Under the pieces are notes generated by a model. It made no database searches. It saw nothing but the letters and a program-made list of their open reading frames with translations, and was not told where the DNA came from. From assembly GCA_041746255.1 (NCBI GenBank), contig JBGTHM010000067.1:1-64000 (forward strand): a stretch of 64,000 bases of DNA, read 5' to 3'. A program made the position numbers and the translations under genes. The stretch comes from Fibrobacteria bacterium (GTDB taxonomy: Bacteria; Fibrobacterota; Fibrobacteria; UBA11236). Numbering within the stretch: position 1 is the stretch's first letter; each line of letters starts with the position of its first letter. Of this stretch, positions 31,106 through 62,156 are shown one piece after another.

Positions 31106-31310
31106 GACTCCAAGGGAAAGGCCACCCCCGTCCCATACAGAGTATAGACTCCATATCGGACCCGGTTCCAGACCCAGGTTACCATAATTGCCAGTCCGGT
31201 CGCCAAACCAATCCCGGAATTGGTGAAGGTCGCAATCCGGATTTAATTTTAAAGGGGGGGAATTGCGCGGCGACATTTGGAGAGTTAGTTTTTACTTCCT
31301 CAGCAAAACT

Positions 31311-40501: not shown

Positions 40502-40512
40502 GATTTCCCAGA

Positions 40513-40541
40513 TTGGAAAGACACTGAAATTGAAGTAAAAT
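40513..40541 (+). promoter_or_regulatory. Candidate sigma70 promoter, copy 1 of a duplicated motif
   Basis: TTGGAA-N17-TAAAAT within ATTGGAAAG-N10-TGAAGTAAAATTAAC, also present at 49038-49071. Confidence 0.6.
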
Positions 40542-40579
40542 TAACTCGGTTTTCGCCCTCGGACCGGAAAACACCTCCC

Positions 40580-41608
40580 ATGGTCACATTTGCACCCTCT
40601 GCATGGCCTCCTGCACCCAGTTCCTTGGAAGCTGCGGAGCCGCGTTTCGATATTTCCATCGTGGTTCCCATGTACAATGAGGAAGAATCCATAGAACCCA
40701 TGTATCGGGCGATTACCGGCACCCTCGCCAGTATAAACCTAAAGGCCGAAATCATTTTCGTAGATGACGGAAGCAAAGACAACACTTTTAAGCGGGCCAA
40801 AGAATTGGCTGCCCAAGACGACCGGCTCCGGGTCATCAAATTCCGCAAGAATTACGGCCAAACCCCCGCCATGGCCGCCGGAATTGATCATGCCCGAGGC
40901 GAGGTTCTCATCACCATGGACGGCGACCTGCAGAACGACCCCCGCGATATCCAGGCCTTTTTGGAACAAATCGCTCTAGGCTACGATATCGTATGCGGCA
41001 TCCGGCAAAAACGCCAGGACAAACTGATATCCCGGAAAATCCCTTCCAAAATCGCCAACTGGTTAATCGGAAAAGTAACCGGCGTCCCTATCAAGGATAA
41101 TGGATGCTCGCTTAAGGCCTACCGAGCCGTGCTGATTAAAAAGGTGCCGCTGTATTCGGAAATGCATCGGTTCATACCCGCCATGGCTTCGTTGGCGGGC
41201 GCCCAAGTCACGCAAATTCCGGTCCGCCACCATGCCCGGCAATTCGGACAATCCAAATACGGTTTGTCCCGCACTTATCGGGTCTTGCTCGATTTATTGA
41301 CCATCAAAACCATTGTTGCTTATGTTGCCCGGCCCTTATACTGGTTTTCGCTTATGTCCTTGCTGGCTTTCGGACTCTCCGCCCTGGCCTTTTTCGCGGG
41401 TGTCGTGGAACTGTGGCAGGATCCATCTCATCCCAAAGTGGTAATGTTGGGACTCAGCCAGATTTTCGCCATGCTGGGGATTTCCCTGGTTTTTTCCGGC
41501 GTACTATGCGAAATGATTTATAAATTCGGCGATCTGAAAATAGAGGCATTGTCCAAGATCCGAGCGCAGCGGTTCGGCTTCGACAAGGAGGTAAAACATG
41601 GCGGATAG
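40580..41608 (+). CDS. GT2 polyprenyl-phosphate glycosyltransferase (ArnC/DPM1-like)
   Basis: SIVVPMYNEE, VDDGS, MDGDLQNDP, EMHRFIP, two C-terminal TM helices. Confidence 0.9.
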   Translation: MVTFAPSAWPPAPSSLEAAEPRFDISIVVPMYNEEESIEPMYRAITGTLASINLKAEIIFVDDGSKDNTFKRAKELAAQDDRLRVIKFRKNYGQTPAMAAGIDHARGEVLITMDGDLQNDPRDIQAFLEQIALGYDIVCGIRQKRQDKLISRKIPSKIANWLIGKVTGVPIKDNGCSLKAYRAVLIKKVPLYSEMHRFIPAMASLAGAQVTQIPVRHHARQFGQSKYGLSRTYRVLLDLLTIKTIVAYVARPLYWFSLMSLLAFGLSALAFFAGVVELWQDPSHPKVVMLGLSQIFAMLGISLVFSGVLCEMIYKFGDLKIEALSKIRAQRFGFDKEVKHGG

Positions 41609-42542
41609 GCCTTTCATTTCCGCGGTGATTCCCATCACGGATGGGCGGTACGATGGCATCGAAGAGGTCTATTATGCCTACAAAAAGGCGCTGAACGATC
41701 AGAGCCTCGACAGCGAATTCATCTATGTACTCGACGGAGCCTATCCCGAAATTTTCGCGCAGCTCAAAGCCTTGCGTGAAAACGGTGAAGACGTGAAAAT
41801 CATCAAGTTTGCCCAATGGTTCGGGGAGTCCGCGGCACTCTCCATGGGATTCGAAAATGCTTCCGGAGAGATTCTGCTTTCCCTTCCCGCCTATTATCAG
41901 GTCGAACCCGAAGAACTCGTGAAAGTGATTGAAGCCCTGGACGAGAACAGCGACATGATCATCGGCCGCCGCAATCCCCGCTCCGATTCAATAGTGAAAA
42001 GGGCGCAAACCTGGACCTTTCATTTTCTCCTAAGGCTCTTAACCCAATTCCCTTTCCGTGACCTGGGATGTAGCGTGCGCGCCATCAAGAAAAAGGTGAT
42101 GGAAGAGGTGCAGATATACGGCGACTTGCACCGCTTTCTGCCCGTATTAGCCTACCGGCAGGGTTTCCGGGTCAAGGAAATCGAACTGAAACAATCCCGA
42201 AAGAACAGCTCTCCCGTAATCTATGCGCCGGGCATCTACCTGCGGCGTCTGCTGGATATTCTCACTGTACTATTCGTGGTCAAGTTCACCAAAAAACCGC
42301 TGCGCTTCTTCGGACTTCTGGGTACTACGCTTTTCGGAATTGGAGCTCTAACGGGATTGGCATTACTCGTGCAAAGGGTGTTCTTCCACATGGCCCTGGC
42401 CGATAGGCCCATCATTCTGGTGCCCGCCCTGCTTTTGACCCTGGGTGTGCAATTTTTTGCCATCGGACTGATCGGAGAAATCCTGATATTTACCCATGCC
42501 AACCAAATGAAAGAATACACGGTCGAAGAAATCGTTAACTGA
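41598..42542 (+). CDS. GT2 ArnC-like glycosyltransferase (divergent; canonical DxD not evident)
   Basis: FGESAAL, DLGCS, YGDLHRFLP, KKPLRFFG, C-terminal TM helices; GGAGG RBS. Confidence 0.82.
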   Translation: MADRPFISAVIPITDGRYDGIEEVYYAYKKALNDQSLDSEFIYVLDGAYPEIFAQLKALRENGEDVKIIKFAQWFGESAALSMGFENASGEILLSLPAYYQVEPEELVKVIEALDENSDMIIGRRNPRSDSIVKRAQTWTFHFLLRLLTQFPFRDLGCSVRAIKKKVMEEVQIYGDLHRFLPVLAYRQGFRVKEIELKQSRKNSSPVIYAPGIYLRRLLDILTVLFVVKFTKKPLRFFGLLGTTLFGIGALTGLALLVQRVFFHMALADRPIILVPALLLTLGVQFFAIGLIGEILIFTHANQMKEYTVEEIVN

Positions 42543-42566: not shown

Positions 42567-44183
42567 TTGCCATACGAATTCACCATCCATCCGGAAATGA
42601 TAGCCCAGTTCGCCGCCTTTACCGGCGATTTCAACTCCATGCACTTGGACGAGGAAATCGCACGGAAGTCACGCTTTCGCGCACGAGTGGCGCATGGAAT
42701 GCTTTCCTTTTCCTTCCTCAGTTGCATTCAGCAGGATTTTCCGGAAAGTAAAGTCCGCTTTAAATCGTTGGAGGCGCGATTTTTAAAACCGGTTTTTCCC
42801 GGTGACCGCCTGAGCCTTCACTTCGATTACCCCGAGCCCGAAGCCGACACCCGAAAATTCACGGCGGTATGGTCCGCAATGCCCGGTGGGGACGTCCGTA
42901 TCAAAGCTTCCGGTACCTTCGCATTGACTGCACCCGCCAAGCAAGCCATCCCTGGACATGACGCCCCCAAATTGTTTCTCAAGGATCAGCCGGAAGAAGC
43001 GGCATTGACACTGAGCGACCTTGAAGGCCGGGAAGCCACGCTCGATTTCAAACTGGACTCTGCCTCCCTTTCAACCTTCTCTCACATACTGTCGGATCAA
43101 GCGGAGCCCTTTGCCCGATCCACTCCCTTATGTCCCAATCTGGCCGCTACCCTCTTGCTCTCTACCTTGGTCGGAATGCGTTTGCCGGGTCGCTTCGCCA
43201 CGTTCACGTCCTTCAAAATCGTCTTCGACCCTAATATCGAAGCCGACATACCCTATCGCCTTCACGGAGCCGTAAAGAAAGTCTTGCCGGCCAGTGAATC
43301 ATTGGAATTATCCATAGCCATTCATTCTGAAACGGGTGTGGCCTTCGCCGGCGGCAACGTAAAGAGCCTGATAAGCCCTCCTCCCCGCACCATGCCGGGA
43401 TGCGCCGATATCCTGGCCAATTACACCCATTTGGGACTGCGCGACAAGGTGGTGCTGATCACCGGCGCCAGCCGAGGCATAGGCGAAACTACCGGAAAAT
43501 TATTCGCCATGCATGGCGCTAAAGTGGTGGTGCATTATTTCAAAGGCAAAAAAGATGCCGAAGCCATTGTTAAGGATATTCGCGATAACGGTGGAAAGGC
43601 CATTTCTCTGGCTTGCGATATACGCAATGAAACGGATGTCGCATCCTTGGTTGCGGCTGTTTTGGAAAATTTCGGCTCCATCGATGTGCTGGTCAATAAT
43701 GCCGTCCGCGAGTTCCAACCCAAGAACCTGCTGGATCTCGAATGGAGCGATTATCTGGGAGAATTGGAAGTCTCGCTGAAAGGCATGCACAATTGCTGCC
43801 GTGAAATAATTCCCCATTTCAAAAAGCAAAAGTCCGGAAAAATCATCAACCTTTCCAGCCTGGTAGTGGACCATCCGGTTACGGGTCAGAACCAATACAT
43901 CACGGCGAAAAGCGCGGTGGTCGGTTATACACGCAGCCTCGCCACCGAATTGCTCAAGCATAACATTCAAGTCAACCTGGTAGCCCCCAACATGGCGGAA
44001 ACCGATTTGCTGTCATCCATCCCGGCCGAATTCGTCAAGCGCATTGGGCAGGAAAGAGCCTATGGACGTAATTTATCCCCTATGGAAGTGGCGTTGAGCA
44101 TTCTTTATTTGGCGTCGCCCTGGACGGACGGCATCACCGGGCAGAAAATTGTTCTGAATCTCGGAGAGCCGCCTTTTGCCTAA
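42567..44183 (+). CDS. MaoC-like (hot-dog) dehydratase fused to an SDR ketoreductase
   Basis: FAAFTGDFNSMH...RVAHGML, FLKPVFPGD (MaoC); TGASRGIG, LVNNA, YITAK (SDR). Confidence 0.88.
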   Translation: MPYEFTIHPEMIAQFAAFTGDFNSMHLDEEIARKSRFRARVAHGMLSFSFLSCIQQDFPESKVRFKSLEARFLKPVFPGDRLSLHFDYPEPEADTRKFTAVWSAMPGGDVRIKASGTFALTAPAKQAIPGHDAPKLFLKDQPEEAALTLSDLEGREATLDFKLDSASLSTFSHILSDQAEPFARSTPLCPNLAATLLLSTLVGMRLPGRFATFTSFKIVFDPNIEADIPYRLHGAVKKVLPASESLELSIAIHSETGVAFAGGNVKSLISPPPRTMPGCADILANYTHLGLRDKVVLITGASRGIGETTGKLFAMHGAKVVVHYFKGKKDAEAIVKDIRDNGGKAISLACDIRNETDVASLVAAVLENFGSIDVLVNNAVREFQPKNLLDLEWSDYLGELEVSLKGMHNCCREIIPHFKKQKSGKIINLSSLVVDHPVTGQNQYITAKSAVVGYTRSLATELLKHNIQVNLVAPNMAETDLLSSIPAEFVKRIGQERAYGRNLSPMEVALSILYLASPWTDGITGQKIVLNLGEPPFA

Positions 44184-44195
44184 AGCCACAAATCC

Positions 44196-45179
44196 ATGAC
44201 AATACCTCGATCCGCTGCGCTTGCGCTGAAACTCACCTTCAGCCTGGGTCTTTTGGTTGTCCTACTTTTACTCGTCGATATTGAGGAAGTTCGCCAGACT
44301 CTCAGCGAAGTTATTCCAATTTACATGGTTGGCGCTGTTTTCTTGGTCATGTGCGATAGACTTTTAGCTGCACTGCGAACCTTTCAATTGCTTAGATCGA
44401 CGGGTGTCAGCATTCGCTTCCGCGAAATGCTTCGACTAACCTGGATGTGCGATTTTCTAAGCATTTTTCTTCCGGGCAGCCTCGCCGGTGATGCGATGCG
44501 TATCTACGGAATCTCCAGGGGTTATACCTCCCTTGCACCCGCTATTTCCGTCATTGCTTTGGAGAGGTTATTCGGCATATTTACCTTGCTAAGCACCGCC
44601 GCCATTGGAGCGCTTCTGGGCTATATAACTGGGTTATTGAGCTTGGACCAATTTATCTCGATTTCCTTGATTTTTGGCGGTAGTACTGCACTTTTGGCGG
44701 TTGCCGCATTAATGGGTCCACGCATTCTGACCAGCCGTTTTTTCGAATTACATGCACTGCTTTTGAAATTCCGTTCTTTGCTCAATACCTTATTCGAATT
44801 CAGGTCGAAAAAAAGGACACTCACATACACTATTTTGATTTCTTTCGGAATGCAGGCTACACGCGCCCTTCTGGTAATGGTAATCGCCATTGGCGTCGGT
44901 ATCCATGTCGATGCGATATACTTCCTGATCATGGTTCCGATTGGCACCCTGATTACCATGGTTCCCATATCCGTAGGCGGCTGGGGTGTTCAGGAAGGAG
45001 CCTATGTCTTTCTTATGAAAACCGTAGGCGTACCCGGATCCCGGGCCTTCGTACTATCCGTGTTGACCACGTTCGCTGGAATCTTGGTCGCCTTGCCGGG
45101 CGCACTGATCTATTTAAAATTCGGTTTGAAGAAAAAGCTGCCTGAATTGGAAGGTGCGGACTGGGAAAAGCTTTCGTAG
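44196..45179 (+). CDS. Lysylphosphatidylglycerol synthase TM-domain (YbhN/UPF0104) flippase-like membrane protein
   Basis: FLPGSLAGDAMR, ERLFG, PISVGGWGVQEG. Confidence 0.85.
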   Translation: MTIPRSAALALKLTFSLGLLVVLLLLVDIEEVRQTLSEVIPIYMVGAVFLVMCDRLLAALRTFQLLRSTGVSIRFREMLRLTWMCDFLSIFLPGSLAGDAMRIYGISRGYTSLAPAISVIALERLFGIFTLLSTAAIGALLGYITGLLSLDQFISISLIFGGSTALLAVAALMGPRILTSRFFELHALLLKFRSLLNTLFEFRSKKRTLTYTILISFGMQATRALLVMVIAIGVGIHVDAIYFLIMVPIGTLITMVPISVGGWGVQEGAYVFLMKTVGVPGSRAFVLSVLTTFAGILVALPGALIYLKFGLKKKLPELEGADWEKLS

Positions 45180-45246
45180 CAAGTATGATTAGAAGCGCCC
45201 ATTTTACGAGTGGAACCGAGTAAAAAGCAGGCAAAAGTGGGAATAA

Positions 45247-45429
45247 TTCCTTCTGCTGACTCTTTCCCCTTGCCTTTACATCATTTATGACGTATTCGTA
45301 TTATCGTACGCCTTTACAAAAACTAGCGCTCGGGTTCCGGAAGACCAAATAAAAAAAGCCCTGAAATGCCGGGAAGATGTAATACGGCGGTTTAAAAAAG
45401 GAGAGGATTTGTATGATTCATTTCACTGA
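45247..45429 (+). pseudogene. 5'-truncated RelE/Gp49-type toxin remnant
   Basis: Open frame with no ATG: ...VFVLSYAFTKTSARVPEDQIKKALKCREDVIRRF...*, matching the C-terminus pattern of Gp49/HigB-like toxins (HAFxKKTxKxPxxEIxxA); overlaps the antitoxin start. Confidence 0.6.
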
Positions 45430-45841
45430 GCATCTTAAGGTGAAGCTCAAAGAGAAAAAATTCTCGGCGGCTTATGAAAAGGAACTCCATATAGTCCGGT
45501 TAGCTGTGGAAGTGGCACAGGCTAGGGAGCGGCAGGGATTGTCACAATCGGTATTAGCGGCCCGCGCTGAAATTACGCAGCAACAACTTTCAAAAGTGGA
45601 GAATGCCAAAGCCTGCAATGTGGAAACCCTATTGAAAATTGTCGACGCATTGGGAATGGAATTGACCTTGCGTCCCAGTAAGGCTGCTCGATCACATAAA
45701 CTTCTAAGGAAGCCGGGAAAGAGGCTGGGAGGACGAACACGCGGCAGTGATACCGCGAATGCAATTAGAAAGAATTCGCGAAAGAAGCCAACAGGTGTTT
45801 CAAAAAAGTCGGGGCATGGTCGGAGCGCGGTCGCGAAGTAA
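45413..45841 (+). CDS. XRE-family HTH protein (HigA-like antitoxin)
   Basis: ARERQGLSQSVLAARAEITQQQLSKVEN...TLLKIVDALG; AGGAGAGG RBS; basic low-complexity tail. Confidence 0.85.
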   Translation: MIHFTEHLKVKLKEKKFSAAYEKELHIVRLAVEVAQARERQGLSQSVLAARAEITQQQLSKVENAKACNVETLLKIVDALGMELTLRPSKAARSHKLLRKPGKRLGGRTRGSDTANAIRKNSRKKPTGVSKKSGHGRSAVAK

Positions 45842-45856
45842 TAAATACCCGTAGAA

Positions 45857-46567
45857 TTATTTTTTCACGGCCTTAATCCCCATAATCACGGGATAATACC
45901 CATCGTAACCGTCCAAGCAGGATTTGTCCTTTAAATCTTCCTGGCTCGCTCCCATAAGAAAAGCAACCGCCGCGGATAAATTACCGTAGCATTCAAAATA
46001 CTCCGGCTTCCCGAAAACCCCTTCAATCACCTTTTCCGCCGAACGTGGGGTGAAACGCCAGAAATCGCCCCATGCCTTGTCGTCATTAGGACTTATTTGG
46101 GATATACCTGCAACGGTGATGAGAGCGGTCCCTCCCGGCTTTAAAAGTTTATGAATCCCCTCTACGGCAGCCTTTAAATCGTAAATGAAATTCAAAGTCT
46201 GGGTACAGATAAAACAATCCGCGATTCCGGCTTGGGAGTCGGGAACTTGAGTTAAGTCGACAATGAGATTTGCGCCTTTAACCTCGGTTGTGGGTGCCAG
46301 AATGTATGTCTTATTAATCCTATCGCCCCCGAACCTGCGGATATAGGTATCTTCGGCAATTTCAATGGCGTCGCCCTTTACGGAAGCGCTTTGGGACTGT
46401 AGAAAGGATTCGATGTAATAGCGATCTATCGGGGTTCCCCTTTCCCGTCCGAATCTTCGGCTTATGGGTGTAATCGTCTCCAATCCCGTCAATGTCCATG
46501 GTTTGAACCGGCGGTAATATCTCCCCCTGGCTTTCCGAGCCCAATTTATCGCCCATTTGGTTAACAT
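45857..46567 (-). CDS. Class I SAM-dependent methyltransferase (polysaccharide-locus type)
   Basis: PISRRFGRERGTPIDRYYIE, DCFICTQTL, LKPGG, DFWRFT. Confidence 0.8.
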   Translation of the reverse strand: MLTKWAINWARKARGRYYRRFKPWTLTGLETITPISRRFGRERGTPIDRYYIESFLQSQSASVKGDAIEIAEDTYIRRFGGDRINKTYILAPTTEVKGANLIVDLTQVPDSQAGIADCFICTQTLNFIYDLKAAVEGIHKLLKPGGTALITVAGISQISPNDDKAWGDFWRFTPRSAEKVIEGVFGKPEYFECYGNLSAAVAFLMGASQEDLKDKSCLDGYDGYYPVIMGIKAVKK

Positions 46568-46594
46568 GTGAACCTCATTTTTCTTTCTGCGTAA

Positions 46595-47716
46595 CTAGAG
46601 CTGGTCATAAATTTGCGTGTAAGCCCGTGCGGTAGTTTTGATATCATAGGTTTTGCTGAGCTTGCGGGATTTTTCCGCCAAACCTGAGCGCAGATCAGCG
46701 TCTTCCAGCAAGCGGCCCCATTTTTCCGCTAAGTCGCCTGAATCTTGGGAGCGGAAAAAGAGCGCCGCAGATCCAGGGTCGAGCATGGCCTTCAGCCCTT
46801 CGCAATCGGAAGCCAGAATGGCTTTACCCGAAGCCATCGCCTCGCCTGCCGCAATCGACATTCCCTCGGAAAGCGAAGCCATGATAAAAACATCCAGCAC
46901 TTGCAATAAGCGGGGTACGTCGGTACGATGTCCAAGAAAACGAACTTGTCTCTCAATTCCAAGACTTAAAACCGAATCCTTCAACTCACCCAATAAGGGT
47001 CCGTCTCCAATGATGAGCAGCACGGAATCGGGAAAGCGATCCCGAATAGATGGCATGGCCTCCAGAATAAAACGATGCCCCTTTATCGGATCGAGTCTGC
47101 CAATGGCGCCTGATATTAAACTGGATTCGGATATACCCAGCTCCGCCTTCAGTGCAGTTAGGGCTGCGGGATCCAGCGTGGGAAAGTTTCCTAACGGAAC
47201 TCCATTGGGAATTACCTGGAGGTTTTCCGGCAACACGCTGCGACGAGCTACCATGAACCGTCGTACATTTTCCGATACTGCAATCGCTTGGCCATTGAGT
47301 GGGCTGAGCATGCTATCAGCCACCTTTTGATAAAGGGGAGAGGCATCCATAGCCATGTGTTCTTGCAAAACCACCGGAGTCCCGGTCAAGAAGCCTGCCA
47401 AGCGGCCGAAATTCCAGGATGCATAACCATGTAAATGCAGAATCCGAGGTTTTTCACGGCGAACTATCCGGATTAAACTGAATACCGTAAAAACGTTAAA
47501 TTTTCCGAGATTGAGACTGACAATGGAAATGTGTTTGGCGGACTCAGGAGGAGTCACTGGTAAATCACGCCGTAGCCCCACGATTTTAAATGCATAGCTT
47601 TCGCGGTCAATTTCGGGAAGGAGATAGAAAAGAATTTGTAAGGCTCCATGGATGGATGAGCCTCCCACACTAAACTTATCCATAATATGGATAATCAATT
47701 TTTTTTCTTGCCGCAT
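46595..47716 (-). CDS. GT4 glycosyltransferase
   Basis: HLHG, IPNGV, GRLDPIKGH, SLSEGMSIAAGEAMASG. Confidence 0.9.
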   Translation of the reverse strand: MRQEKKLIIHIMDKFSVGGSSIHGALQILFYLLPEIDRESYAFKIVGLRRDLPVTPPESAKHISIVSLNLGKFNVFTVFSLIRIVRREKPRILHLHGYASWNFGRLAGFLTGTPVVLQEHMAMDASPLYQKVADSMLSPLNGQAIAVSENVRRFMVARRSVLPENLQVIPNGVPLGNFPTLDPAALTALKAELGISESSLISGAIGRLDPIKGHRFILEAMPSIRDRFPDSVLLIIGDGPLLGELKDSVLSLGIERQVRFLGHRTDVPRLLQVLDVFIMASLSEGMSIAAGEAMASGKAILASDCEGLKAMLDPGSAALFFRSQDSGDLAEKWGRLLEDADLRSGLAEKSRKLSKTYDIKTTARAYTQIYDQL

Positions 47717-47744
47717 AAATTCAATTGCTTCTATTGCTTAAGCG

Positions 47745-48977
47745 TTATGGGGTTTCTGCAATTCTTATCTGGTATTTTTCGATTTCTTTATTTTTATTCC
47801 CGTACTCGCGAGAAGAAGAGAATTTCCGTTTCAATGTATGGGCAAAACCCTTACGATTTTTACCGGGTAACATGGTGAGGTACTCTTCCTGAGAACGAAG
47901 CATGAACTTGGGATAGTCTTTATCGGGGTGACAGGCAAACCCGCGCGTAGCGCCCAGGTGTAAAACCGCATAGCCAAGGGCTTTTGCCCGTACAGCCATG
48001 CGCTCCGAACCTATAAACCAGGGGTTACAGAAGTGTCGAACTACTTTTCCGGGCAAGCGGCTTTCAATACGGACTTTGGATTCGCGTAATTCGAAATCAA
48101 GAGCCGCGTCTCTCTGAGCAGGAGTTTCGTAACTATCCTGTAATTTATTTTTCCGGCTAAAATCGGTGCAAATTTGAAAGAGTCCTTTTTTCCAATCAGG
48201 CCTGGAGAAATAGTCAACTCCTCCATTTTCCGATACCCACTTCTCACAAGCCGCTCGCACCCGTAAATCATCGAAATACCGGGCTCTACCCGCGTAGCGT
48301 GACGCGGAAGCATAAATCGGATGACCCGCAATGTTTTCACGGCGGTCTCCTTCTTCGGTACCATCGCCGTAAAAGGGTATTTGGGAGTTTCCGAAATAAT
48401 AGATGCCGGATTCAATGCCGACAAAATCAATTATGCGTGGCGAAACACTAACCAATGGATGATAAAGACCGTGGGATTGAAAATCAATCACGCCGCTGTC
48501 GTGCATGTATTTGATTTGCGCCCAGGAGCATAAAGCCACCGTGGTTTTCTCGGCAGGCAAAGCGGCTTGCTGACGCGAGAGGTCCTTTTCTGTTAATGGC
48601 TGCCCCTCCTCTATCAATCCCGGTAAAATGAATGAAATCGCTTTGTACTCATATTTTTTGAGCAAAGGAAATGCGACATGCCATAGCGATATCAAGCCAT
48701 CGTCGAAAGTCAGAACGATTTCTTTTCCGTTATTCCGGTAAGCCGGATCCTGTAAACGGCTTTCCAACTCCGTGGCATCCAGAGTGATATAACCGTTTGA
48801 TTTCAAGAACGCAAGTTGCGCCTCAAAGTGGTCCGGCTCGACCGCATGGAAACAAAAGTTCGGAATATCCTCGAACCGGTTTTTCCCATAGATGAATTGC
48901 GGCATTTTCCCGGTCGCGAAAGCCTGGATCTCCGGAAAATTTTTTTTGAGACTTCGGCCGAGCTTTTGGAGTAACAT
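47745..48977 (-). CDS. Polysaccharide deacetylase (NodB/CE4-like) with a large insertion
   Basis: VLTFDDG, DFQSHGLYH, HFCNPW; start 48977 or 48995. Confidence 0.8.
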   Translation of the reverse strand: MLLQKLGRSLKKNFPEIQAFATGKMPQFIYGKNRFEDIPNFCFHAVEPDHFEAQLAFLKSNGYITLDATELESRLQDPAYRNNGKEIVLTFDDGLISLWHVAFPLLKKYEYKAISFILPGLIEEGQPLTEKDLSRQQAALPAEKTTVALCSWAQIKYMHDSGVIDFQSHGLYHPLVSVSPRIIDFVGIESGIYYFGNSQIPFYGDGTEEGDRRENIAGHPIYASASRYAGRARYFDDLRVRAACEKWVSENGGVDYFSRPDWKKGLFQICTDFSRKNKLQDSYETPAQRDAALDFELRESKVRIESRLPGKVVRHFCNPWFIGSERMAVRAKALGYAVLHLGATRGFACHPDKDYPKFMLRSQEEYLTMLPGKNRKGFAHTLKRKFSSSREYGNKNKEIEKYQIRIAETP

Positions 48978-49038
48978 TAGCCGAAAATATACCAAACGAT
49001 TTGGATTTCCCCGATTTCATCCCCTGGCCAACCCCCAA

Positions 49039-49067
49039 TTGGAAAGGGCTTGGAGATGAAGTAAAAT
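49039..49067 (+). promoter_or_regulatory. Candidate sigma70 promoter, copy 2 of a duplicated motif
   Basis: TTGGAA-N17-TAAAAT with the same flanking motif as 40512-40545. Confidence 0.6.
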
Positions 49068-49100
49068 TAACGGCGGTCTCCCTTAAGTACTCAAACAAAT

Positions 49101-50978
49101 ATGGTCGAAAAACCCGGAACTATTTTACCCGATAAAACTCCATGGGAGACTTTAAAGGGCTGCGCCGATTTTATTGGATTGAAACAATTGCTCAACGATT
49201 ACGGTGTTGATAACCTCACCCTCCAGCAAATCCAGACCCTGGGGCGCAGAATCCAGAAAATGGGCGGTAAAGACGTTCTCCGCATTGCCTTCATGGGAAA
49301 CTTCACCTTGGATTTGTTGCCGGCGGGCGTTACGGTACGTGGCGCTACCGCCGGATTGCAGGCCAAGCATTACCTGGGCGGATTCAACCAGTATTATCAG
49401 GAGATGCTGGATTCCGAATCCGGATTGCGGACTTTCGCCGCCGACTATATCGTATTGGCGCTGAGCCTCAGGCTGTTAGAGCCCGACCTCCATTATAATT
49501 ATGCGGGTTTGGATGAGAAGACCCGTGAGGAAAGGAAGGAGCGTGCCCTCCACCATATCCTCGATTGGGTTAAACTTTCGCTGGAAAACACCTCGGCCAC
49601 CTTATTGATAGCGAATTTTGCTCTGCCTATTCATTTGGCGGCCGGAATCGGAGACAAAAAACTTCCCGGTGACGAGACCACCTTCTACCACGACTTGAAC
49701 AAAAAGTTGGCCGAGGCTTTGCTGAACGAAGACCGCTGCTTTATCCTGGATATCGACAACCTCGCCGCCAATTTCGGCAGGAAAAAAGTTTGCGATCCCA
49801 AGCTGTTTTTTATGGCCAAAATGGAGTGGAGCGAACCCTTTATGGGGGAAGTTTCCCGTACCGTATGGAAATTCATTCAATCCATTCAGGGGCTCGGTAA
49901 AAAGTGTCTGGTCCTTGATCTCGACAACACCCTGTGGGGCGGAGTAGTGGGGGAGGATGGCGTCCTTGGCGTTAAAGTGGGTCAGGGAGATCCCACCGCC
50001 GAAGCTTTTTTGGAATTTCAGCACTGCATCAAAGGCCTTAAGGCCCGTGGAATTCTTCTGGCCCTTTGCAGCAAGAATAACTTGGCGGACGTAGAGGAGA
50101 TTTTTTCCCTAAGAACGGAAATGCCCCTGAAATGGAGCGACTTCTCCGCTGTCGCCGTCAATTGGGAGCCCAAACACGAGAATATCCGTCGGATTGCTTC
50201 CGAGCTGAATATCGGCACAGATAGTATGGTTTTTCTGGACGATAACCCGGCCGAATGCTCCCTGGTTCGGCAAATGCTTCCTGAAGTATTGACGGTGCTC
50301 CTGCCGGAAGACCCTGCGGCCTATGTCGATGTCTTATCGGAACTGGACGGATTGGAGCGCGCCGCCATCCTCGCCGACGACCTGCGCAAATCGGAACAAT
50401 ACGGTTTGCAAAAACAAAGAACCGTGCATCGCGCTTCCGTGACCGATATGGATGCTTATCTGCGCAGCCTGGAAACGGAGGTCACCATTCGTAGCGCAGC
50501 CAAGGAGGATTTGGCGAGAGTCCACCAGCTGTTCAATAAAACCAATCAATTCAACCTGACCACCAAACGGTATTCGCTGGGCGAAGTGGAAAGCTTTTTC
50601 ACCAGCGAAAAGCATGTGCTGGGAACAGTATCCGCCGGAGACCGCTTCGGCGACCTGGGACTTATCGGCGTGTTTTTACTGGAGTGGCGGGAAAATGGCG
50701 GTGTTCTGGACAGCTTGCTGATGAGCTGCCGGGCCATGGGTCGGGGGATTGAAAGCGCCATGATGAATCATGTCAAATCCCTCATGGAAAAAAATCCGGG
50801 CATGCGGCAATTGGAGGCCGTATATCTGCCCACGCCTAAAAACCAACCCGTGGAAAATTTCCTTGAAGGGCAAGGGTTTAAGGTGACGGAGGCCCGGGAC
50901 GACGGATCGAAACATTATCTTTTGGCCTATACGGAGATTCAAGCAATCGACTGCGCCTGGATCCGGCTGAAAAATTAA
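49101..50978 (+). CDS. fkbH: FkbH-like HAD-IIIC glyceryl transferase/phosphatase
   Basis: VLDLDNTLWGG, SKNN, FLDDNPAE, KTNQFNLTT, DRFGDLG, MSCRAMGR. Confidence 0.93.
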   Translation: MVEKPGTILPDKTPWETLKGCADFIGLKQLLNDYGVDNLTLQQIQTLGRRIQKMGGKDVLRIAFMGNFTLDLLPAGVTVRGATAGLQAKHYLGGFNQYYQEMLDSESGLRTFAADYIVLALSLRLLEPDLHYNYAGLDEKTREERKERALHHILDWVKLSLENTSATLLIANFALPIHLAAGIGDKKLPGDETTFYHDLNKKLAEALLNEDRCFILDIDNLAANFGRKKVCDPKLFFMAKMEWSEPFMGEVSRTVWKFIQSIQGLGKKCLVLDLDNTLWGGVVGEDGVLGVKVGQGDPTAEAFLEFQHCIKGLKARGILLALCSKNNLADVEEIFSLRTEMPLKWSDFSAVAVNWEPKHENIRRIASELNIGTDSMVFLDDNPAECSLVRQMLPEVLTVLLPEDPAAYVDVLSELDGLERAAILADDLRKSEQYGLQKQRTVHRASVTDMDAYLRSLETEVTIRSAAKEDLARVHQLFNKTNQFNLTTKRYSLGEVESFFTSEKHVLGTVSAGDRFGDLGLIGVFLLEWRENGGVLDSLLMSCRAMGRGIESAMMNHVKSLMEKNPGMRQLEAVYLPTPKNQPVENFLEGQGFKVTEARDDGSKHYLLAYTEIQAIDCAWIRLKN

Positions 50979-50986
50979 GGAATAGC

Positions 50987-51214
50987 ATGGAAGACGATAT
51001 CAAAGAAATCATGGCGGAGATTCTGGATGTGGACTCGGCGGACATTAACGAAAATTTCGGTCCGGAAAATACCGATAATTGGGACTCCTTGAGCAACCTC
51101 CGCTTGATTTCGGCCTTGGAAGAAAGGTTCTCCATTAAACTGACCATGCAGGAAATCGGTACCATGACCGATTTCCATCAGATCAAAAAGGTTGTTTCGG
51201 GTAAGGCGAAATGA
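50987..51214 (+). CDS. Acyl carrier protein
   Basis: 75 aa, acidic, WDSL phosphopantetheine site; AAGGA RBS. Confidence 0.9.
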   Translation: MEDDIKEIMAEILDVDSADINENFGPENTDNWDSLSNLRLISALEERFSIKLTMQEIGTMTDFHQIKKVVSGKAK

Positions 51215-51738
51215 CTTTACGGAAAATCTTCGCCCGGTTTTTCATGCCGGGTTCTCTAATCAGCTTGTATTACCTCCGAAAATTCGGATGTCAAATCAGC
51301 CCGCGGGCCGAAGTGGAATTGAGCCCGCTATTGACTATCGGCAAAAAAACCGCGATAAGCTCCTTCACCAAAATCAAAGCGACGGACGGACCCTTGAAAA
51401 TCGGCGCGCGCGTCCATATCGCCACCAGCTGTTTTATCGCCAGCCACTTCGGCGGCCTGCAAATCGGCGACGATTGCATGATCAGCCCCAACGTTTCCAT
51501 TATCGGCAACAACTATCGCTATGATGAATTGGAAACGCCGTTCATGCAGCAAGGGGTTACTTCCAAAGGCATTGTAATCGGCCGCAATGTCTGGATTGGC
51601 AGCGGAGCCTGCATTTTAGATGGAGCCCGTATCGGCAACAATGTGATTATCACCCCCAACTCCGTCGTCTCCGCCAAAGTGCCGGACAATACCATTCTCC
51701 AAGGCAATCCCGCGAAGGTGATCTTCACTCGGAGATAA
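51211..51738 (+). CDS. Hexapeptide-repeat (LbH) acyltransferase
   Basis: IGKKTAIS, IGARVHIA, IGDDCMIS, IGRNVWIG, GNPAK; ATGA-coupled to the ACP. Confidence 0.88.
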   Translation: MTLRKIFARFFMPGSLISLYYLRKFGCQISPRAEVELSPLLTIGKKTAISSFTKIKATDGPLKIGARVHIATSCFIASHFGGLQIGDDCMISPNVSIIGNNYRYDELETPFMQQGVTSKGIVIGRNVWIGSGACILDGARIGNNVIITPNSVVSAKVPDNTILQGNPAKVIFTRR

Positions 51739-51744
51739 GGCCTA

Positions 51745-52314
51745 ATGCCGTTGCCTATCGCCCATGCGGCCATTGCCGTTTGCCTGACCCGCATCATTCC
51801 GATGGGAAGCCAGATGGGATCCCCTTCCAGGCGACGCCTTTCAGTCTTGGCTTTGGGGTTTATCGCCGCGGTTTCCCCCGATTTCGATTTTATTCCCGGG
51901 CTTTTATCGGGCGAGACCAACCGGTTCCACCAAGGCCCCACGCATAGCCTCTTCGGAGCGGCCCTGTGCGGACTGCTCGTTTACCTTTTCTTTCTTCCCT
52001 TTCTAAAAGGTTTGCCGAAAATTGCCTTAATAATTTATGCCATGCTCGCAGCACTTTTCCATCCAGTGCTCGACCTTTTTTCCCGGGATACCCGGCCGCC
52101 TATTGGCGTTCCCCTTTTTTGGCCTTTTGCCGAGGGGCATGTCATCTCACCCTTTCCACTTTTCCGTTCGGTACATCGTTCGAGCGAAGCCGGAGAATTT
52201 TTCGCATCCTTGTTCTCCCTGCATAATTTCATGGCTGCGGGCCAGGAACTGATATTCGGCCTAATCCTAATCACCGCGACTTGGGCCTTCACAAAAAAGA
52301 GGAAGTCATCATGA
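51745..52314 (+). CDS. Membrane-bound metal-dependent hydrolase (YdjM-like)
   Basis: PIAH, PDFD, H-x-G-x-THS, HPVLD, GVPLFWP. Confidence 0.85.
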   Translation: MPLPIAHAAIAVCLTRIIPMGSQMGSPSRRRLSVLALGFIAAVSPDFDFIPGLLSGETNRFHQGPTHSLFGAALCGLLVYLFFLPFLKGLPKIALIIYAMLAALFHPVLDLFSRDTRPPIGVPLFWPFAEGHVISPFPLFRSVHRSSEAGEFFASLFSLHNFMAAGQELIFGLILITATWAFTKKRKSS

Positions 52315-53294
52315 AAGTGCTTGTTACCGGAGCCACGGGATTTACCGGAACAGCTCTGCTAAAACGACTGGTTTCGCAAGGTGCGACCGTACGCGCCATC
52401 GCCCGCTCCAGTTCCAACCTGAAACCCTTCGAAGGCATGCCTATCGAATGGATACGCGGAGACGTTTACGATCCGATTACGGTGACCCAGGCGATGGTCG
52501 GCATTGAATACGTATTTCATATCGCCGCGGCCTATCGAGAAGCCAAAATCTCCGACGACATTTATGCCAAGGTGCATGTGGAAAGCACCAAATTACTGGT
52601 CCGTGAGGCGATAAGGCAGCCCGCCTTCCAGAGATTCGTCCATGTCTCTACCATGGGAGTACATGGGCATGTGGAAAACCCTCCCGGAAATGAAAACTCT
52701 CCCTATAGCCCCGGCGATTTGTATCAAGAAACCAAGTTGGAAGCGGAGCTCTGGATTCGAAAATTTTCCGAAACCAACGGGCTTCCCCTGTCGGTGATAC
52801 GGCCTTGCGCCATTTATGGACCGGGCGATAAGCGGTTGCTGAAATTATTCAAAATGGCCAAGCGCCCCCTGGTCCCAATTCTTGGCTATACCAAGGGCCT
52901 GTACCATCTCATTCATGTCGAAGATTTGGTCGAATACATGCTGGAGGCCGCCATTTCTCCCAAAGCCCTGGGCGAAGTCTTTCTCTGCGGCAACCCGGAG
53001 CCCATGCGGCTGGTGGACTTAATCACCACCATCGGCAACGAATTGGGAAAAAGCCCTAAATTCGTACGCATCCCAGCCGCCCCATTTTTCGCCTTGGGGT
53101 ATTTATGCGAAAAAACCTTTCCTCTGTTCAATTTAGAGCCACCGATTTATCGGCGCAGAGTAGCCTTTTTTACCAAAGATCGTAGTTTCGACACCTCAAA
53201 ATTGATTAATACGCTCGGGTCCAAGTTCAAATACTCCAATCAGTCCGGTTTAGCCGCCACCGCCCGCTGGTACTTGGATAAGGGTTGGCTATAA
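52311..53294 (+). CDS. NAD-dependent epimerase/dehydratase (extended SDR)
   Basis: VTGATGFTG, HVST, YQETK, IYGPGD; ATGA-coupled. Confidence 0.9.
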   Translation: MKVLVTGATGFTGTALLKRLVSQGATVRAIARSSSNLKPFEGMPIEWIRGDVYDPITVTQAMVGIEYVFHIAAAYREAKISDDIYAKVHVESTKLLVREAIRQPAFQRFVHVSTMGVHGHVENPPGNENSPYSPGDLYQETKLEAELWIRKFSETNGLPLSVIRPCAIYGPGDKRLLKLFKMAKRPLVPILGYTKGLYHLIHVEDLVEYMLEAAISPKALGEVFLCGNPEPMRLVDLITTIGNELGKSPKFVRIPAAPFFALGYLCEKTFPLFNLEPPIYRRRVAFFTKDRSFDTSKLINTLGSKFKYSNQSGLAATARWYLDKGWL

Positions 53295-53401: not shown

Positions 53402-56221
53402 ATGCAGCAAGCTTCAAGAACTCATACCCAACTCCGGGTTTCACTTCCGCTGGTTGGGCTTTTGCTCCTTTCCCACCTGCAAGCGCAATCCCTCCATCAA
53501 CTCGTGGAAGAGCAAATGACTTGGCCCAACCACGGCCTTTCCAATCCCTTTTTACAGACTGAACTCGAATTGCAAATCCAAGCTCCTACGGGCCGCTCTC
53601 CCAATACTTTCCGGTTTTTCGGATTTCATGATGGCGACGGCAAGGGCGGGCAATCGGGAGACGTTTGGAAATTCCGGATTATGTTCGATGCCCCCGGTGA
53701 TTGGTCGATTACCGCTCGCTTCGTAAACCCCGCGACCGGCCAACCCATGACGGGCTCTCCCGCGGCCAAGCAATTCCAATATACCGTAAGCGCCACTCCC
53801 GCCGCCTCCAACCACGGTCATATTCGTATCGATCCCGATAATAATTCCCGATTTCGTCATAAGGATGGTACGCCTTTTGTACCCTTTCCCATCCATGCCT
53901 CCATGTTGCTGGAGCGTAGCCTCAGTATTTCCCAACAATGGATAGATGCCCACGCCGCATTGGGCGTTAATGCCTTGACGGTGCGGTTCCATAGCGAGGC
54001 CGGCCCCGCGTTGAGTGAAAACGGGTTTTACCATTTTCTAGGCAAGAACGGCTCGCGGATATTGAGATGGCCCGGATCCATAAATGATTTTGACTATACC
54101 CGCTACGATATTGCGGCCTGGACTCACAATGAAAAAGTCATTCAAATGGCCGAAGACAAAGGCATCAAGCTTTCCATTTGGTTCGGTATCAGCGGCATTA
54201 ACGAACAGTATTGGAGTTATGGTCCCAAGGATTTCACGGATAACGTTAAAGTCGGGCCACAACAAAAACAATTCATCCGCTACCTGCTGGCGCGATGGGC
54301 CGCCATGCCGACCTGGTGGCATTGGACGGTGGACAGTGAATATGAAGAAACCGGCGGTCAGGCGCTGGCTCGGAATCAAAATTACGCCGCGGCCCTTAAA
54401 GCCGAAAACCCCTGGTCCACTTTAGTCACCACCCATGTGCTATTGGATTGGACACCGAAGAACGCCCCCGAATTCGACTTCGTCACTCTGCAGCGCATGG
54501 TGCCCGATCAAAACAATTTGGTGGGAGCGGTGAAAAGCCTGGTCGAATTCAATTCGGGTTACGGAAAACCGGTTTATAATGCCGAAGGAGTTTGGTATTT
54601 GGCGAATGCCGATCGCACCCGCATCGCCTTGATGGCCCATATCATGGCCGGTGGATACGCGCATGTAGCCCATGGCCAATCCGAACACAAGGTTTCTTCC
54701 TGGGGTTCCGATTGGAATTTCGTGCAGGCCAGACACAAGGAAGACGCGAAAGTGGTGGGGAATCTGGCCCAGGCCTTCAATAAAATTCCGGCGCTGGAAA
54801 TCGGTTCGGCGCGCCCCTCCCATTCCCTGGTTTCGGAAGCTTCCGGTTTAGAGGCCTTCTGCCTGGCCGCCCCCTCGCAAACCTACCTGGTCTGGCTGCC
54901 CTCCGGCGGCCAAGCCTCTTTGGACTTGAAAGGCGTTAGCGGAGAATTTCAAGTTACCCGTTACCTGGGCAAGGATTTTCAGGATCAGAAAAATCTGGGA
55001 ACCGTCAATGCCGGGAGTATTATCCAATTGGAAGCCGCGCCCAAAATGGGTTTCGGAAACGACTACCTCTTCGTAATCCGTAATAAAGGCGCCCTGCAAT
55101 TGGGAATTTCTACGCCTCCGAAATTGACCGCTTATATAGGCAAGCCCTTTGTAGAAGTCTTGCAAGCCGCAGGAGGAATTGCTGCCCTGCAATGGAAATT
55201 GGAATCGGGCAACCTGCCGAACGGAATTTTGCTGGTCAACAATACCCTGACGGGGACCCCGCTTACACAAGGAGAAAGTACATTCGAACTGTCCGTAACT
55301 GACGGAAACAGCACGGCGAAAAGAAGCTTTACCCTCACCGTCGCCGCAGCTCCCGAGACCGACCCTCCGGTAATCAGCAATTTCACGGTGCAGAATATCT
55401 CCCTGTCCGGAGCCACCGTCGCTTGGACCACCAACGAACCCGCCTCCAGCCGGGTGCAATGGGGTAACGCCAAAGGTTCGTATACCGGCGAAAGCGGAGT
55501 CGTCGCCACCCGCCAAACCGCGCATGCCGTTCCCATAACCGGACCCTTTACCGCCGACCAACAAGTGTTCGTACTGATAATCACCTCCGATACCGTGGGA
55601 AATACCAGCACCTTCGAAGGCGATTTCCAGGTAAAAATCTCGGACCCCGGCCTTATCGTGAAAGCCTATCATGGCGGGGCGACCCCGCCTCAAATCGTCA
55701 AGGGCGGATTGACCGAGGGTGCGAACAGCGCCATGGACAGACAAGACACCTGGAAGAACGTCCCCAACGAATTGAAAAATCTTCCCTATTTAATGACATC
55801 GCGCGATGACAAGGCTCATGCTTTGGACGCCGACGGCATTATGTATGAAATCGAATCCGGCCTTCCCACGATTGTATTGGCACTGGTAGACGGCTCACCC
55901 GCGTGGTTGGAAAAAGACGGGTGGGAGGGGGTTGATTTACCGGGACCGAATACCCATGATACCGACTATAAAGTCTACCGGAAACAATTCGCAGCCGGGG
56001 TCATTCCCCTAAAACGGTGGAAAGCCGGCGAATCCCAGGGGACAAGTTATTTATTCCAATCCCTCGGAGGAGTCGGGTCCCTGAATGCTTCAAAATTCGA
56101 GCAATCGAAAGCCTTTTTTTTTCATGGCCTATCGAACGGTGCGTTCCTTTTCCGTCCCGCTCATCGGGATGGGGATGTTATTGACGCTGCTGGCCGGGTT
56201 CGGCGTATACCGCTTCGTTAA
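53402..56221 (+). CDS. Secreted DUF5060/DUF4038 (GH140 apiosidase-like) protein with collagen-binding-like, He_PIG Ig, FN3-like and unnamed modules
   Basis: Signal peptide; NPF...GFHDGDG...WKFR (DUF5060); F-x-x-x-DGTPF, YLLARW, EY, KPVYNAEG; SGNLPNG...LTGTP (Ig); WTTNEPASSRV. Confidence 0.72.
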   Translation: MQQASRTHTQLRVSLPLVGLLLLSHLQAQSLHQLVEEQMTWPNHGLSNPFLQTELELQIQAPTGRSPNTFRFFGFHDGDGKGGQSGDVWKFRIMFDAPGDWSITARFVNPATGQPMTGSPAAKQFQYTVSATPAASNHGHIRIDPDNNSRFRHKDGTPFVPFPIHASMLLERSLSISQQWIDAHAALGVNALTVRFHSEAGPALSENGFYHFLGKNGSRILRWPGSINDFDYTRYDIAAWTHNEKVIQMAEDKGIKLSIWFGISGINEQYWSYGPKDFTDNVKVGPQQKQFIRYLLARWAAMPTWWHWTVDSEYEETGGQALARNQNYAAALKAENPWSTLVTTHVLLDWTPKNAPEFDFVTLQRMVPDQNNLVGAVKSLVEFNSGYGKPVYNAEGVWYLANADRTRIALMAHIMAGGYAHVAHGQSEHKVSSWGSDWNFVQARHKEDAKVVGNLAQAFNKIPALEIGSARPSHSLVSEASGLEAFCLAAPSQTYLVWLPSGGQASLDLKGVSGEFQVTRYLGKDFQDQKNLGTVNAGSIIQLEAAPKMGFGNDYLFVIRNKGALQLGISTPPKLTAYIGKPFVEVLQAAGGIAALQWKLESGNLPNGILLVNNTLTGTPLTQGESTFELSVTDGNSTAKRSFTLTVAAAPETDPPVISNFTVQNISLSGATVAWTTNEPASSRVQWGNAKGSYTGESGVVATRQTAHAVPITGPFTADQQVFVLIITSDTVGNTSTFEGDFQVKISDPGLIVKAYHGGATPPQIVKGGLTEGANSAMDRQDTWKNVPNELKNLPYLMTSRDDKAHALDADGIMYEIESGLPTIVLALVDGSPAWLEKDGWEGVDLPGPNTHDTDYKVYRKQFAAGVIPLKRWKAGESQGTSYLFQSLGGVGSLNASKFEQSKAFFFHGLSNGAFLFRPAHRDGDVIDAAGRVRRIPLR

Positions 56222-61958: not shown

Positions 61959-62156
61959 CCTAACTAGACGAGGTTAAAGACCTGGGTCGAATTATACATT
62001 ACCGGCGGAATTTCTTGCGCCGCCTTTTCCCAAACCCTTATTTATTTAAGTCCGGGTTCACCAGTTACAACCCGGCCATGTGAATCCGCATAACCTGCAT
62101 AGGCCGCCTTGCGCATCTTCAGGATTGGGATATGCGGGCCGGCCGGAGGTTCTTTT

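Follow-up and report, generated by a model that had tools for sequence, protein, structure and literature searches.

The loading modules of certain trans-acyltransferase (trans-AT) polyketide synthases (PKSs), those of bryostatin (BryA) and FR901464, consist of dehydratase (DH), ketoreductase (KR), FkbH, and acyl carrier protein (ACP) domains and are reportedly assigned to a lactate starter unit, made by conversion of a glyceryl to a lactyl group. A carrier protein also feeds an acyl group to the cell surface in the Dlt pathway, which D-alanylates teichoic acids. Here, we describe a locus in a Fibrobacteria bacterium in which similar parts stand in a polysaccharide region: a stretch of 64,000 nucleotides (GenBank assembly GCA_041746255.1, contig JBGTHM010000067.1, positions 1 to 64,000; hereafter, the window) that encodes an FkbH-family loader, an ACP, a hexapeptide-repeat acyltransferase of the left-handed beta-helix (LbH) type, and a fusion of a MaoC dehydratase to a short-chain dehydrogenase/reductase (SDR). 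Lactoyl and glyceroyl groups on bacterial surface sugars shape antigenicity, and the gellan of Sphingomonas bears a glyceryl ester. N-(R)-lactoyl pseudaminic acid occurs in a Psychrobacter capsule, according to PMC7281560, which also references N-(2-hydroxypropionyl)perosamine in Vibrio cholerae O144; N-glyceroyl pseudaminic acid occurs in the S-layer glycan of Tannerella, and that report calls its genetic basis a major challenge (PMC5378307). In the O-polysaccharide locus of Flavobacterium psychrophilum, the ACP encoded by wfpD and the PglD-like LbH protein encoded by wfpG are predicted to acylate a sugar (PMC6519341). The first-pass annotation of the window knew of no characterized pathway of the form seen here for surface glycans; consistent with that statement, searches of the open-access literature found no paper linking FkbH, glyceryl-ACP, or lactyl-ACP to polysaccharides, subscription journals being mostly uncovered.

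On balance, we favor the reading that the window contains a PKS-independent cassette that makes a three-carbon acyl group, lactyl, on a carrier protein and passes it to a sugar. In the proposed scheme, FkbH would move glycerate from a glycolytic acyl-phosphate (1,3-bisphosphoglycerate in the polyketide homologs that have been studied) to the ACP, giving glyceryl-S-ACP. The MaoC half of the fusion would then take the 2-proton and the 3-hydroxyl to yield enol-pyruvoyl-ACP, tautomerizing to pyruvoyl-ACP, and the FabG-like SDR half would reduce the 2-keto group to give lactyl-S-ACP. The LbH protein would pass the acyl group to a sugar, most likely to a hydroxyl of a nucleotide- or lipid-linked sugar, and an adjacent extended SDR may have a hand in making that acceptor. 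What FkbH uses as substrate, how the MaoC and SDR steps are ordered and what they yield, the acyl-ACP donor of LbH, and the acceptor are all inferred.

Scans with Pfam and NCBIfam confirmed that the genes named in the first-pass annotation are present and intact. The Pfam scan covered 42 window proteins, namely 41 of the 45 open reading frames (ORFs) of at least 80 amino acids plus the ACP; the four ORFs outside it encode 82-97 amino acids and lie at the window ends. In the FkbH-family loader (49101-50978, + strand; 625 amino acids), an N-terminal domain is followed by a HAD-IIIC phosphatase domain and then by a C-terminal domain in which a cysteine is invariant. The protein scored 302.8 bits against TIGR01686, for which the curated cut-off is 146.65, and matched FkbH_N with an E-value of 2.3e-13. 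Its DxDxT, SKN, DD, NQFN, and SCR motifs were invariant in an alignment of ten sequences (this protein and nine others, including a PKS-embedded FkbH domain from a related genome); these presumed catalytic residues correspond to the C-terminal cysteine motif and to motifs of HAD phosphatases. Both its score and its motifs make the protein a member of the TIGR01686 family of glyceryl-ACP loaders, and it is predicted to convert 1,3-bisphosphoglycerate to glyceryl-S-ACP. Its nearest solved relative is an uncharacterized Bacteroides fragilis protein (3slr; E 6e-55). This is the only FkbH in the genome and it lies in the glycan locus, and none of 14 control genomes had an FkbH match. Adjoining it is a dedicated, stand-alone ACP (50987-51214, +; 75 amino acids) that matched PP-binding (E 1.4e-5) and whose translation carries the phosphopantetheine serine in a W-D-S-L motif; the genome encodes one phosphopantetheinyl transferase, of the AcpS type.

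The MaoC-SDR fusion (42567-44183, +; 538 amino acids) is the proposed dehydratase and ketoreductase acting on glyceryl-ACP. Its N-terminus matched MaoC_dehydratas over residues 4-85 (E 1.4e-21; PF01575, 76.8 bits against a cut-off of 27), and its C-terminus is a classical SDR (adh_short_C2, residues 300-533, E 1.5e-53). In an alignment of the fusion with 17 homologs of 39-51% identity, the hydratase Asp/His pair (D21 and H26) and the SDR triad (S430, Y444, and K448) were each invariant in 18 of 18 sequences, as were the cofactor residues of the glycine-rich motif (G300, S302, G304, and G306). An AlphaFold model (pLDDT 87.3) contains two helix-plus-sheet units, at residues 1-121 and 150-269, ahead of the Rossmann domain; a fold search with the whole model gave only SDR matches, the SDR half having dominated. 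Sequence comparison and the Foldseek search (TM up to 0.93 on the target) both place that half nearest to FabG, yet it falls under every FabG equivalog cut-off (170.8 bits against 297.75 for TIGR01830), and is, as judged by these comparisons, FabG-like rather than FabG. FabG enzymes act on ACP-bound substrates. A MaoC protein of the hydratase-2 type and a keto-reductase SDR, with the predicted catalytic residues intact, are the exact pair for 3-deoxygenation of a 2,3-dihydroxyacyl thioester. The architecture is widespread: metagenomes, cyanobacteria, and proteobacteria yielded more than 100 relatives that match over the full length at 39-54% identity, and the hotdog half as query returned 149 cluster representatives at an E-value of 1e-10 or better. 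Among the best 150 matches to the hotdog half, 92 are 480-620 amino acids long, and 124 carry the motif G-D-x-[NS]-x-x-H.

Whether the fusion belongs with FkbH was addressed through gene neighborhoods. We fetched 58 loci from named genomes, of which 46 cover 50% or more of the fusion; the window proteins were compared to each locus, and neighbors were counted within the fetched flanks or within 10 kb of the fusion. FkbH was present in the flanks of 33 of the 46 fusion loci, spread over many phyla; when only the 23 loci with 8 kb or more on either side are counted, 20 have it. The distance from the fusion is 2.5 kb or less in 31 of the 33. Ten of the 13 fusion loci without FkbH have a short flank. 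Five genomes with such FkbH-less loci were tested, all of which carry exactly one FkbH elsewhere and thus provide precedents for the split arrangement of the window; the fusion is flanked by 8 kb or more on either side in three of these genomes and by about 7 kb on either side in a fourth, whereas the fifth has a short flank.

We also compared the distribution of the two genes across whole genomes. A sample from the window's own phylum was uninformative, as the hotdog part was found in only one of 296 genomes, so the test was moved to the order around locus L037 (107 genomes; one member, G388, is flagged as unpublished and was negative). A search with the hotdog half gave a two-peaked distribution, with 14 full-length matches at E-values of 5.1e-41 or lower in 13 genomes and generic single-hotdog matches at 2.1e-13 or higher. 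FkbH was found in 21 of the 107, in 20 of them above the cut-off. Thirteen genomes have both the fusion and FkbH, none has the fusion only, eight have FkbH only, and 86 have neither.

In the window, the cassette occupies two operons, separated by 4.9 kb, that have a promoter-like motif in common. The motif belongs to a 39-nt direct repeat of 77% identity (40507-40545 and 49033-49071); the two copies (40513-40545 and 49039-49071, both +) match exactly in their -35-like and -10-like hexamers, which a 17-nt spacer separates, and in their conserved flanks, and are sigma-70-like. When the 4.59-Mb genome was searched with the 33-nt pattern, allowing up to three mismatches, exactly two occurrences were found, one before each operon, while a reversed-pattern control gave zero matches. 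The upstream copy lies about 35 nt 5' of the first of two glycosyltransferase family 2 (GT2) genes and the downstream copy about 30 nt 5' of FkbH. The duplicated motif noted in the first-pass annotation is therefore a real repeat; its first copy fronts the operon GT2a-GT2b-MaoC/SDR-flippase and not the MaoC-SDR gene itself. It is plausible that the shared motif is a device for co-expressing a split cassette. Together, adjacency across phyla, co-occurrence across genomes, and the common motif bear out the proposal that MaoC-SDR belongs functionally with FkbH, ACP, and LbH, a link that these genomic comparisons strongly support.

Among the window's relatives, FkbH scored above the cut-off in 7 of 41 genomes (including the window's own genome and an unpublished one, G021). 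One relative (G003) carries the functions as four separate genes in the order FkbH-ACP-MaoC-SDR. Another (G012) encodes a diverged fusion of 393 amino acids that was found by Pfam but missed by the protein query of the 40 relatives, which returned SDR-part matches only. Of the five FkbH contexts examined in relatives, one is such a set of four separate genes, one has the order LbH-ACP-short fusion-FkbH beside NeuB, one is cut by a contig end, one is a PKS, and another, lacking MaoC and SDR, consists of MBOAT, FkbH, ACP, and a pair of methyltransferases. Locus L088 (G031:C170, 4101-12169) places FkbH and ACP with an MBOAT protein, a B12-radical SAM enzyme, and two methyltransferases but has neither MaoC nor SDR, which suggests further tailoring of a carrier-bound C3 unit.

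The LbH acyltransferase (51211-51738, +; 175 amino acids), the proposed acyl-ACP:sugar O-acyltransferase, overlaps the ACP stop codon with its start by 4 nt, an arrangement of translational coupling. It matched Hexapep (E 2.3e-14), and in the PDB it is closest to maltose, galactoside, and polysialic-acid O-acetyltransferases, which places it nearest to the Maa/LacA/WbbJ group; against the WbbJ equivalog it falls short (82.3 bits, cut-off 243). These comparisons point to a sugar hydroxyl as the probable target. LbH is the best conserved protein of the set, with a homolog in 24 of the 46 fusion loci (48-62% identity in 23 of them), and 17 of the 107 genomes, every one FkbH-positive, encode an ortholog with 53% identity or more. 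The gene overlap with ACP, together with this restriction to FkbH-positive genomes, argues for acyl-ACP as the likely donor. Of the two delivery routes that the first-pass annotation had offered, the one through LbH is thus upheld; the other, through the GT2 pair and the YbhN-like flippase, was rejected as a general mechanism, since no more than 3 of the 46 loci have the pair, and no more than 8 the flippase-like gene, alongside the fusion.

Other transferases accompany other versions of the cassette. More distant fusions (29-39% identity) stand beside MBOAT proteins in L054 and L062, with a GDSL-like protein as well in L054, and the fusion of L058 adjoins a GNAT, with a DegT aminotransferase nearby. 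Because the core pairs with LbH, MBOAT, or GNAT in different loci, the simplest reading is a constant donor-making core with exchangeable transferases. Conversely, 5 of the 107 genomes have FkbH and LbH but no fusion, and in all four examined of those five, FkbH, ACP, and LbH stand together with no MaoC or SDR match nearby. The existence of such triads suggests that the triad alone may transfer glyceryl, and that the triad plus the fusion may transfer lactyl. In the window, the transferase is a soluble LbH protein, and therefore the acyl transfer is probably cytoplasmic.

Several further genes travel with the cassette. The FkbH operon is tight, and LbH is followed by a YdjM-family membrane protein (51745-52314, +), which has homologs in 4 of the 46 fusion loci, and by an HpnA-like extended SDR of the nucleotide-sugar epimerase/dehydratase family (52311-53294, +), the commonest neighbor of FkbH. 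The listed ORF for the latter starts with a TTG at 52281, but homologs fit an ATG at 52311. Homologs of this extended SDR and of the glycosyltransferase family 4 (GT4) protein at 58631-59800 (+) each lie within 10 kb of the fusion in 17 of the 46 loci; the corresponding counts are 16 for a GlpD-like FAD oxidoreductase (56218-57765, -), 15 for a 280-amino-acid protein (57717-58559, -), and 12 for the GT4 protein at 46595-47716 (-). A recurrent order is the 280-amino-acid protein, GT4, GlpD-like enzyme, SDR, FkbH, ACP, LbH, and fusion. Relatives of the GlpD-like enzyme in L023 (2808-4481) and L040 (15404-17044) have the domains DAO and DAO_C.

The 280-amino-acid protein had no family in Pfam (up to an E-value of 5) or NCBIfam. 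It has an invariant D-x-H-x-H motif and more acidic residues, and the best match of its model (pLDDT 85.5) is to PHP-family metal phosphoesterases (E 1.8e-6, TM about 0.5-0.6), in agreement with an atlas lead. Its gene almost always adjoins those for the GT4 and the GlpD-like flavoenzyme. Since this PHP-like gene is wider spread than FkbH, being present in 25 of the 107 genomes, including 10 that have no FkbH, the trio of PHP-like, GT4, and GlpD-like genes suggests itself as a core to which the acyl cassette was added. The module was probably acquired laterally, given that the fusion's hotdog half was seen in 1 of 296 genomes of its phylum (the window's only) and that the G+C content falls to 0.475-0.489 at 44-50 kb compared with 0.51-0.60 elsewhere in the window.

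Alternative explanations differ in how much of this evidence they accommodate. One is that the genome encodes a polyketide or tetronate pathway at another place, for which FkbH and ACP provide the starter or extender unit. This would accord with the only role characterized for FkbH-type enzymes (PMC7489565), and a related genome (G007) does have FkbH inside a trans-AT PKS. We nevertheless regard this explanation as scarcely credible. The genome is rated 100% complete, its ketosynthase (KS) family matches number three (two FabF proteins above the equivalog cut-off and one thiolase), it has no condensation domain of nonribosomal peptide synthetases (NRPSs), and its single FkbH lies in the glycan locus. 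A supply role for a PKS was rejected on these grounds, in line with the first-pass annotation, which had also reported no KS or NRPS domain in the window; none was found among the 42 proteins scanned with Pfam. The PKS of the related genome (L091, G007:C34, 5571-16331) is a trans-AT enzyme of 3586 amino acids; in its loading region, an FkbM-type methyltransferase domain precedes an FkbH domain. It is conceivable, though very unlikely, that MaoC-SDR is unrelated to FkbH and serves the GT2 pair and the flippase, acting, for example, on a lipid or a lipid-linked sugar, with FkbH, ACP, and LbH alone transferring glycerate. In the window, the fusion is indeed co-transcribed with GT2a, GT2b, and the flippase-like gene, with gaps of at most 24 nt or overlaps, and 4.9 kb separates it from FkbH. 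This arrangement is seldom seen elsewhere, however, as only 3 of the 46 loci place the GT2 pair close to the fusion and only 8 the flippase-like gene, compared with 33 for FkbH; moreover, in the 107-genome order none of the 13 fusion genomes lacks FkbH, all five unlinked genomes tested have FkbH, and both operons carry a promoter motif found nowhere else in the genome.

Two further alternatives leave the carrier-bound C3 unit in place. In one, which we judge improbable, the C3 acyl group that is delivered ends up as something other than lactyl: it may be glyceryl (the fusion being otherwise employed), pyruvoyl, or whatever else results if oxidation and dehydration take place in a different order. 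Here, only the parts list is known, and since FkbH-ACP-LbH triads exist without MaoC/SDR (in four of four examined, among the 5 of 107 genomes with FkbH and LbH but no fusion), LbH can evidently handle the untrimmed group. Oxidation to hydroxymalonyl-ACP is one of the other known fates of glyceryl-ACP (PMC7489565), and methyltransferases recur near the cassette. Against this, a hydratase-2-type dehydratase with intact Asp/His residues, fused to an SDR with an intact triad, suits 3-deoxygenation exactly, and Pfam scans of the window gave no homologs of the FkbK/FkbI-type dehydrogenases of the hydroxymalonyl route. Alternatively, the acyl group may be placed by the co-travelling module on a distinct, conserved glycoconjugate (a glycolipid or small glycoside) and not on the variable Wzx/Wzy polymer, a possibility that deserves notice even though we doubt it. 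The module (two GT4 proteins, the GlpD-like, PHP-like, SDR, and flippase-like proteins, and a deacetylase) moves between phyla as a unit; five of its genes lie near the fusion in 12-17 of 46 loci in a recurrent order, all of them lie inside the window, at 40.5-59.8 kb, and the occurrence of the PHP-like gene in 10 FkbH-less genomes among 25 of the 107, and of the fusion's hotdog part in 1 of 296 phylum members, fits such a module. A GT4 with a phosphoesterase also resembles two-step pathways in which a phosphorylated acceptor is glycosylated and then dephosphorylated. Yet Wzx- or Wzy-type genes are also present in several such loci, including L023 and L049, and in the window, no product can be named, and the fold match of the 280-amino-acid protein (TM about 0.5-0.6, E 1.8e-6) is modest. 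A broader proposal joins these threads, and we offer it tentatively: FkbH-ACP-LbH could be the long-missing basis of glyceroyl glycans, with the fusion as an optional lactoyl upgrade, and an acquired module of about 19 kb and 13 genes could build one lactylated glycoconjugate or glycolipid, from cyanobacteria to proteobacteria, distinct from the Wzx/Wzy polymer.

Several points weigh against the lactyl-cassette reading that we favor. The case for each proposed step is built on genes, motifs, and linkage. The dehydratase is of the MaoC type and not the PKS DH type, the FabG-like family normally reduces 3-oxo and not 2-oxo groups, and the nearest solved relatives of LbH take acetyl-CoA and not acyl-ACP. 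The reported PKS precedent for dehydration and reduction of glyceryl-ACP to lactyl-ACP, in bryostatin and FR901464 synthesis, was not found in searches of the open-access literature. The GlpD-like enzyme, the PHP-like phosphoesterase, and YdjM co-travel with the cassette, and the scheme gives them no role. The window's fusion, in a GT2/flippase operon 4.9 kb from FkbH, is atypical compared with the 31 of 33 loci in which the distance is within 2.5 kb. In the 107-genome comparison, the E-value line that defines the 13 fusion genomes was drawn after the two-peaked distribution had been seen, and in G395, which belongs to these 13, FkbH is represented by just two fragments that score below the curated cut-off. 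The 107 genomes are also kin, and their counts overstate independence; despite this kinship, the nesting of fusion genomes within FkbH genomes is clean.

The surroundings of the cassette, as annotated by the Pfam scan, form a Wzx/Wzy-type polysaccharide region. Associated with the fusion, though not core to the cassette, are GT2a (40580-41608, +), an ArnC/PgfS-like polyprenyl-phosphate glycosyltransferase (NF007986, E 7.1e-53, below the cut-off), its diverged ArnC-like paralog GT2b (41598-42542, +), and the flippase-like membrane protein (44196-45179, +; LPG_synthase_TM, TIGR00374). The GT2 genes (40580-42542, +) are kept as a pair with the flippase-like gene, the second being strongly diverged, and in L025 (15415-17343) such a pair adjoins a PMT_2 (GT-C) gene; the pair and the flippase-like gene may constitute a polyprenyl-phosphate-sugar decoration system apart from the acyl cassette. 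Between the two operons is a helix-turn-helix (HTH) gene, and on the opposite strand are a weak methyltransferase match, the GT4 gene that recurs with the cassette, and a polysaccharide deacetylase-family gene (47745-48995, -) with homologs in 5 of the 46 fusion loci. At 30002-32768, a polyprenyl-phosphate-type GT2 fused to a GtrA-like membrane domain is divergent from, and overlaps, a PMT_2 (GT-C) gene. Downstream of the FkbH operon, a protein of 939 amino acids (53402-56221, +) has DUF5060 and an apiosidase-like domain, and a gammaproteobacterial counterpart locus (L025, 11117-12808) encodes a protein with DUF5060 and GH5; both may be glycan-processing hydrolases. Just outside the module is an OpgC-family membrane acyltransferase (60801-61958, -), whose gene neighbors are galE (59804-60787) and a C-methyltransferase-like gene (62109-63326).

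Comparison with described systems places the cassette apart from each of them. Like the FkbH/OzmB-type loaders of methoxymalonyl-ACP and tetronate pathways (PMC7489565), the FkbH of the window scores above the family cut-off, has the common motifs, and is served by a dedicated, stand-alone ACP; unlike them, it stands in a glycan locus with neither an oxidation and methylation set of the FkbK/FkbI/FkbG type nor a FabH-like tetronate synthase. The wfpD/wfpG system of F. psychrophilum shares with the window a locus-specific ACP and a hexapeptide acyltransferase in a polysaccharide locus, but its 3,5-dihydroxyhexanoyl group is built in the manner of fatty-acid synthesis, by ketosynthases and a reductase (PMC6519341), and its transferase is a PglD-type N-acyltransferase, whereas here the acyl group would be of glycolytic origin via FkbH, with no KS, and the LbH protein is nearest to sugar O-acetyltransferases.

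If the proposed function is correct, lactoyl and glyceroyl decorations would become predictable from genomes, with a clean genetic switch in which the triad alone denotes glyceroyl and the triad plus the fusion denotes lactoyl. The route from glycolysis to a carrier protein, now known only from polyketide synthesis, would extend to the cell surface, and the cassette would offer small, portable parts for glycoengineering.

With the Dlt pathway, the cassette has in common a small carrier that feeds an acyl group to a surface polymer, and the FkbH/MaoC-SDR variants of L054 and L062, which come from other phyla, adjoin an MBOAT protein; the window itself differs in having neither an MBOAT nor a DltD-like gene, its transferase being the soluble LbH protein. 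Closest in logic is the lactate-starter module of PKSs, whose four activities (FkbH loader, carrier, dehydratase, and keto-reductase) likewise follow one another in this logic and have the same proposed net chemistry. In the window, by contrast, these are free-standing proteins, the dehydratase is a MaoC-type protein (a putative double hotdog) and not PS-DH, the reductase is FabG-like, and no KS follows anywhere in the genome, the acyl group being proposed to go to LbH instead. The cassette is thus a functional analog of the PKS lactate-starter module and not a member of its family.

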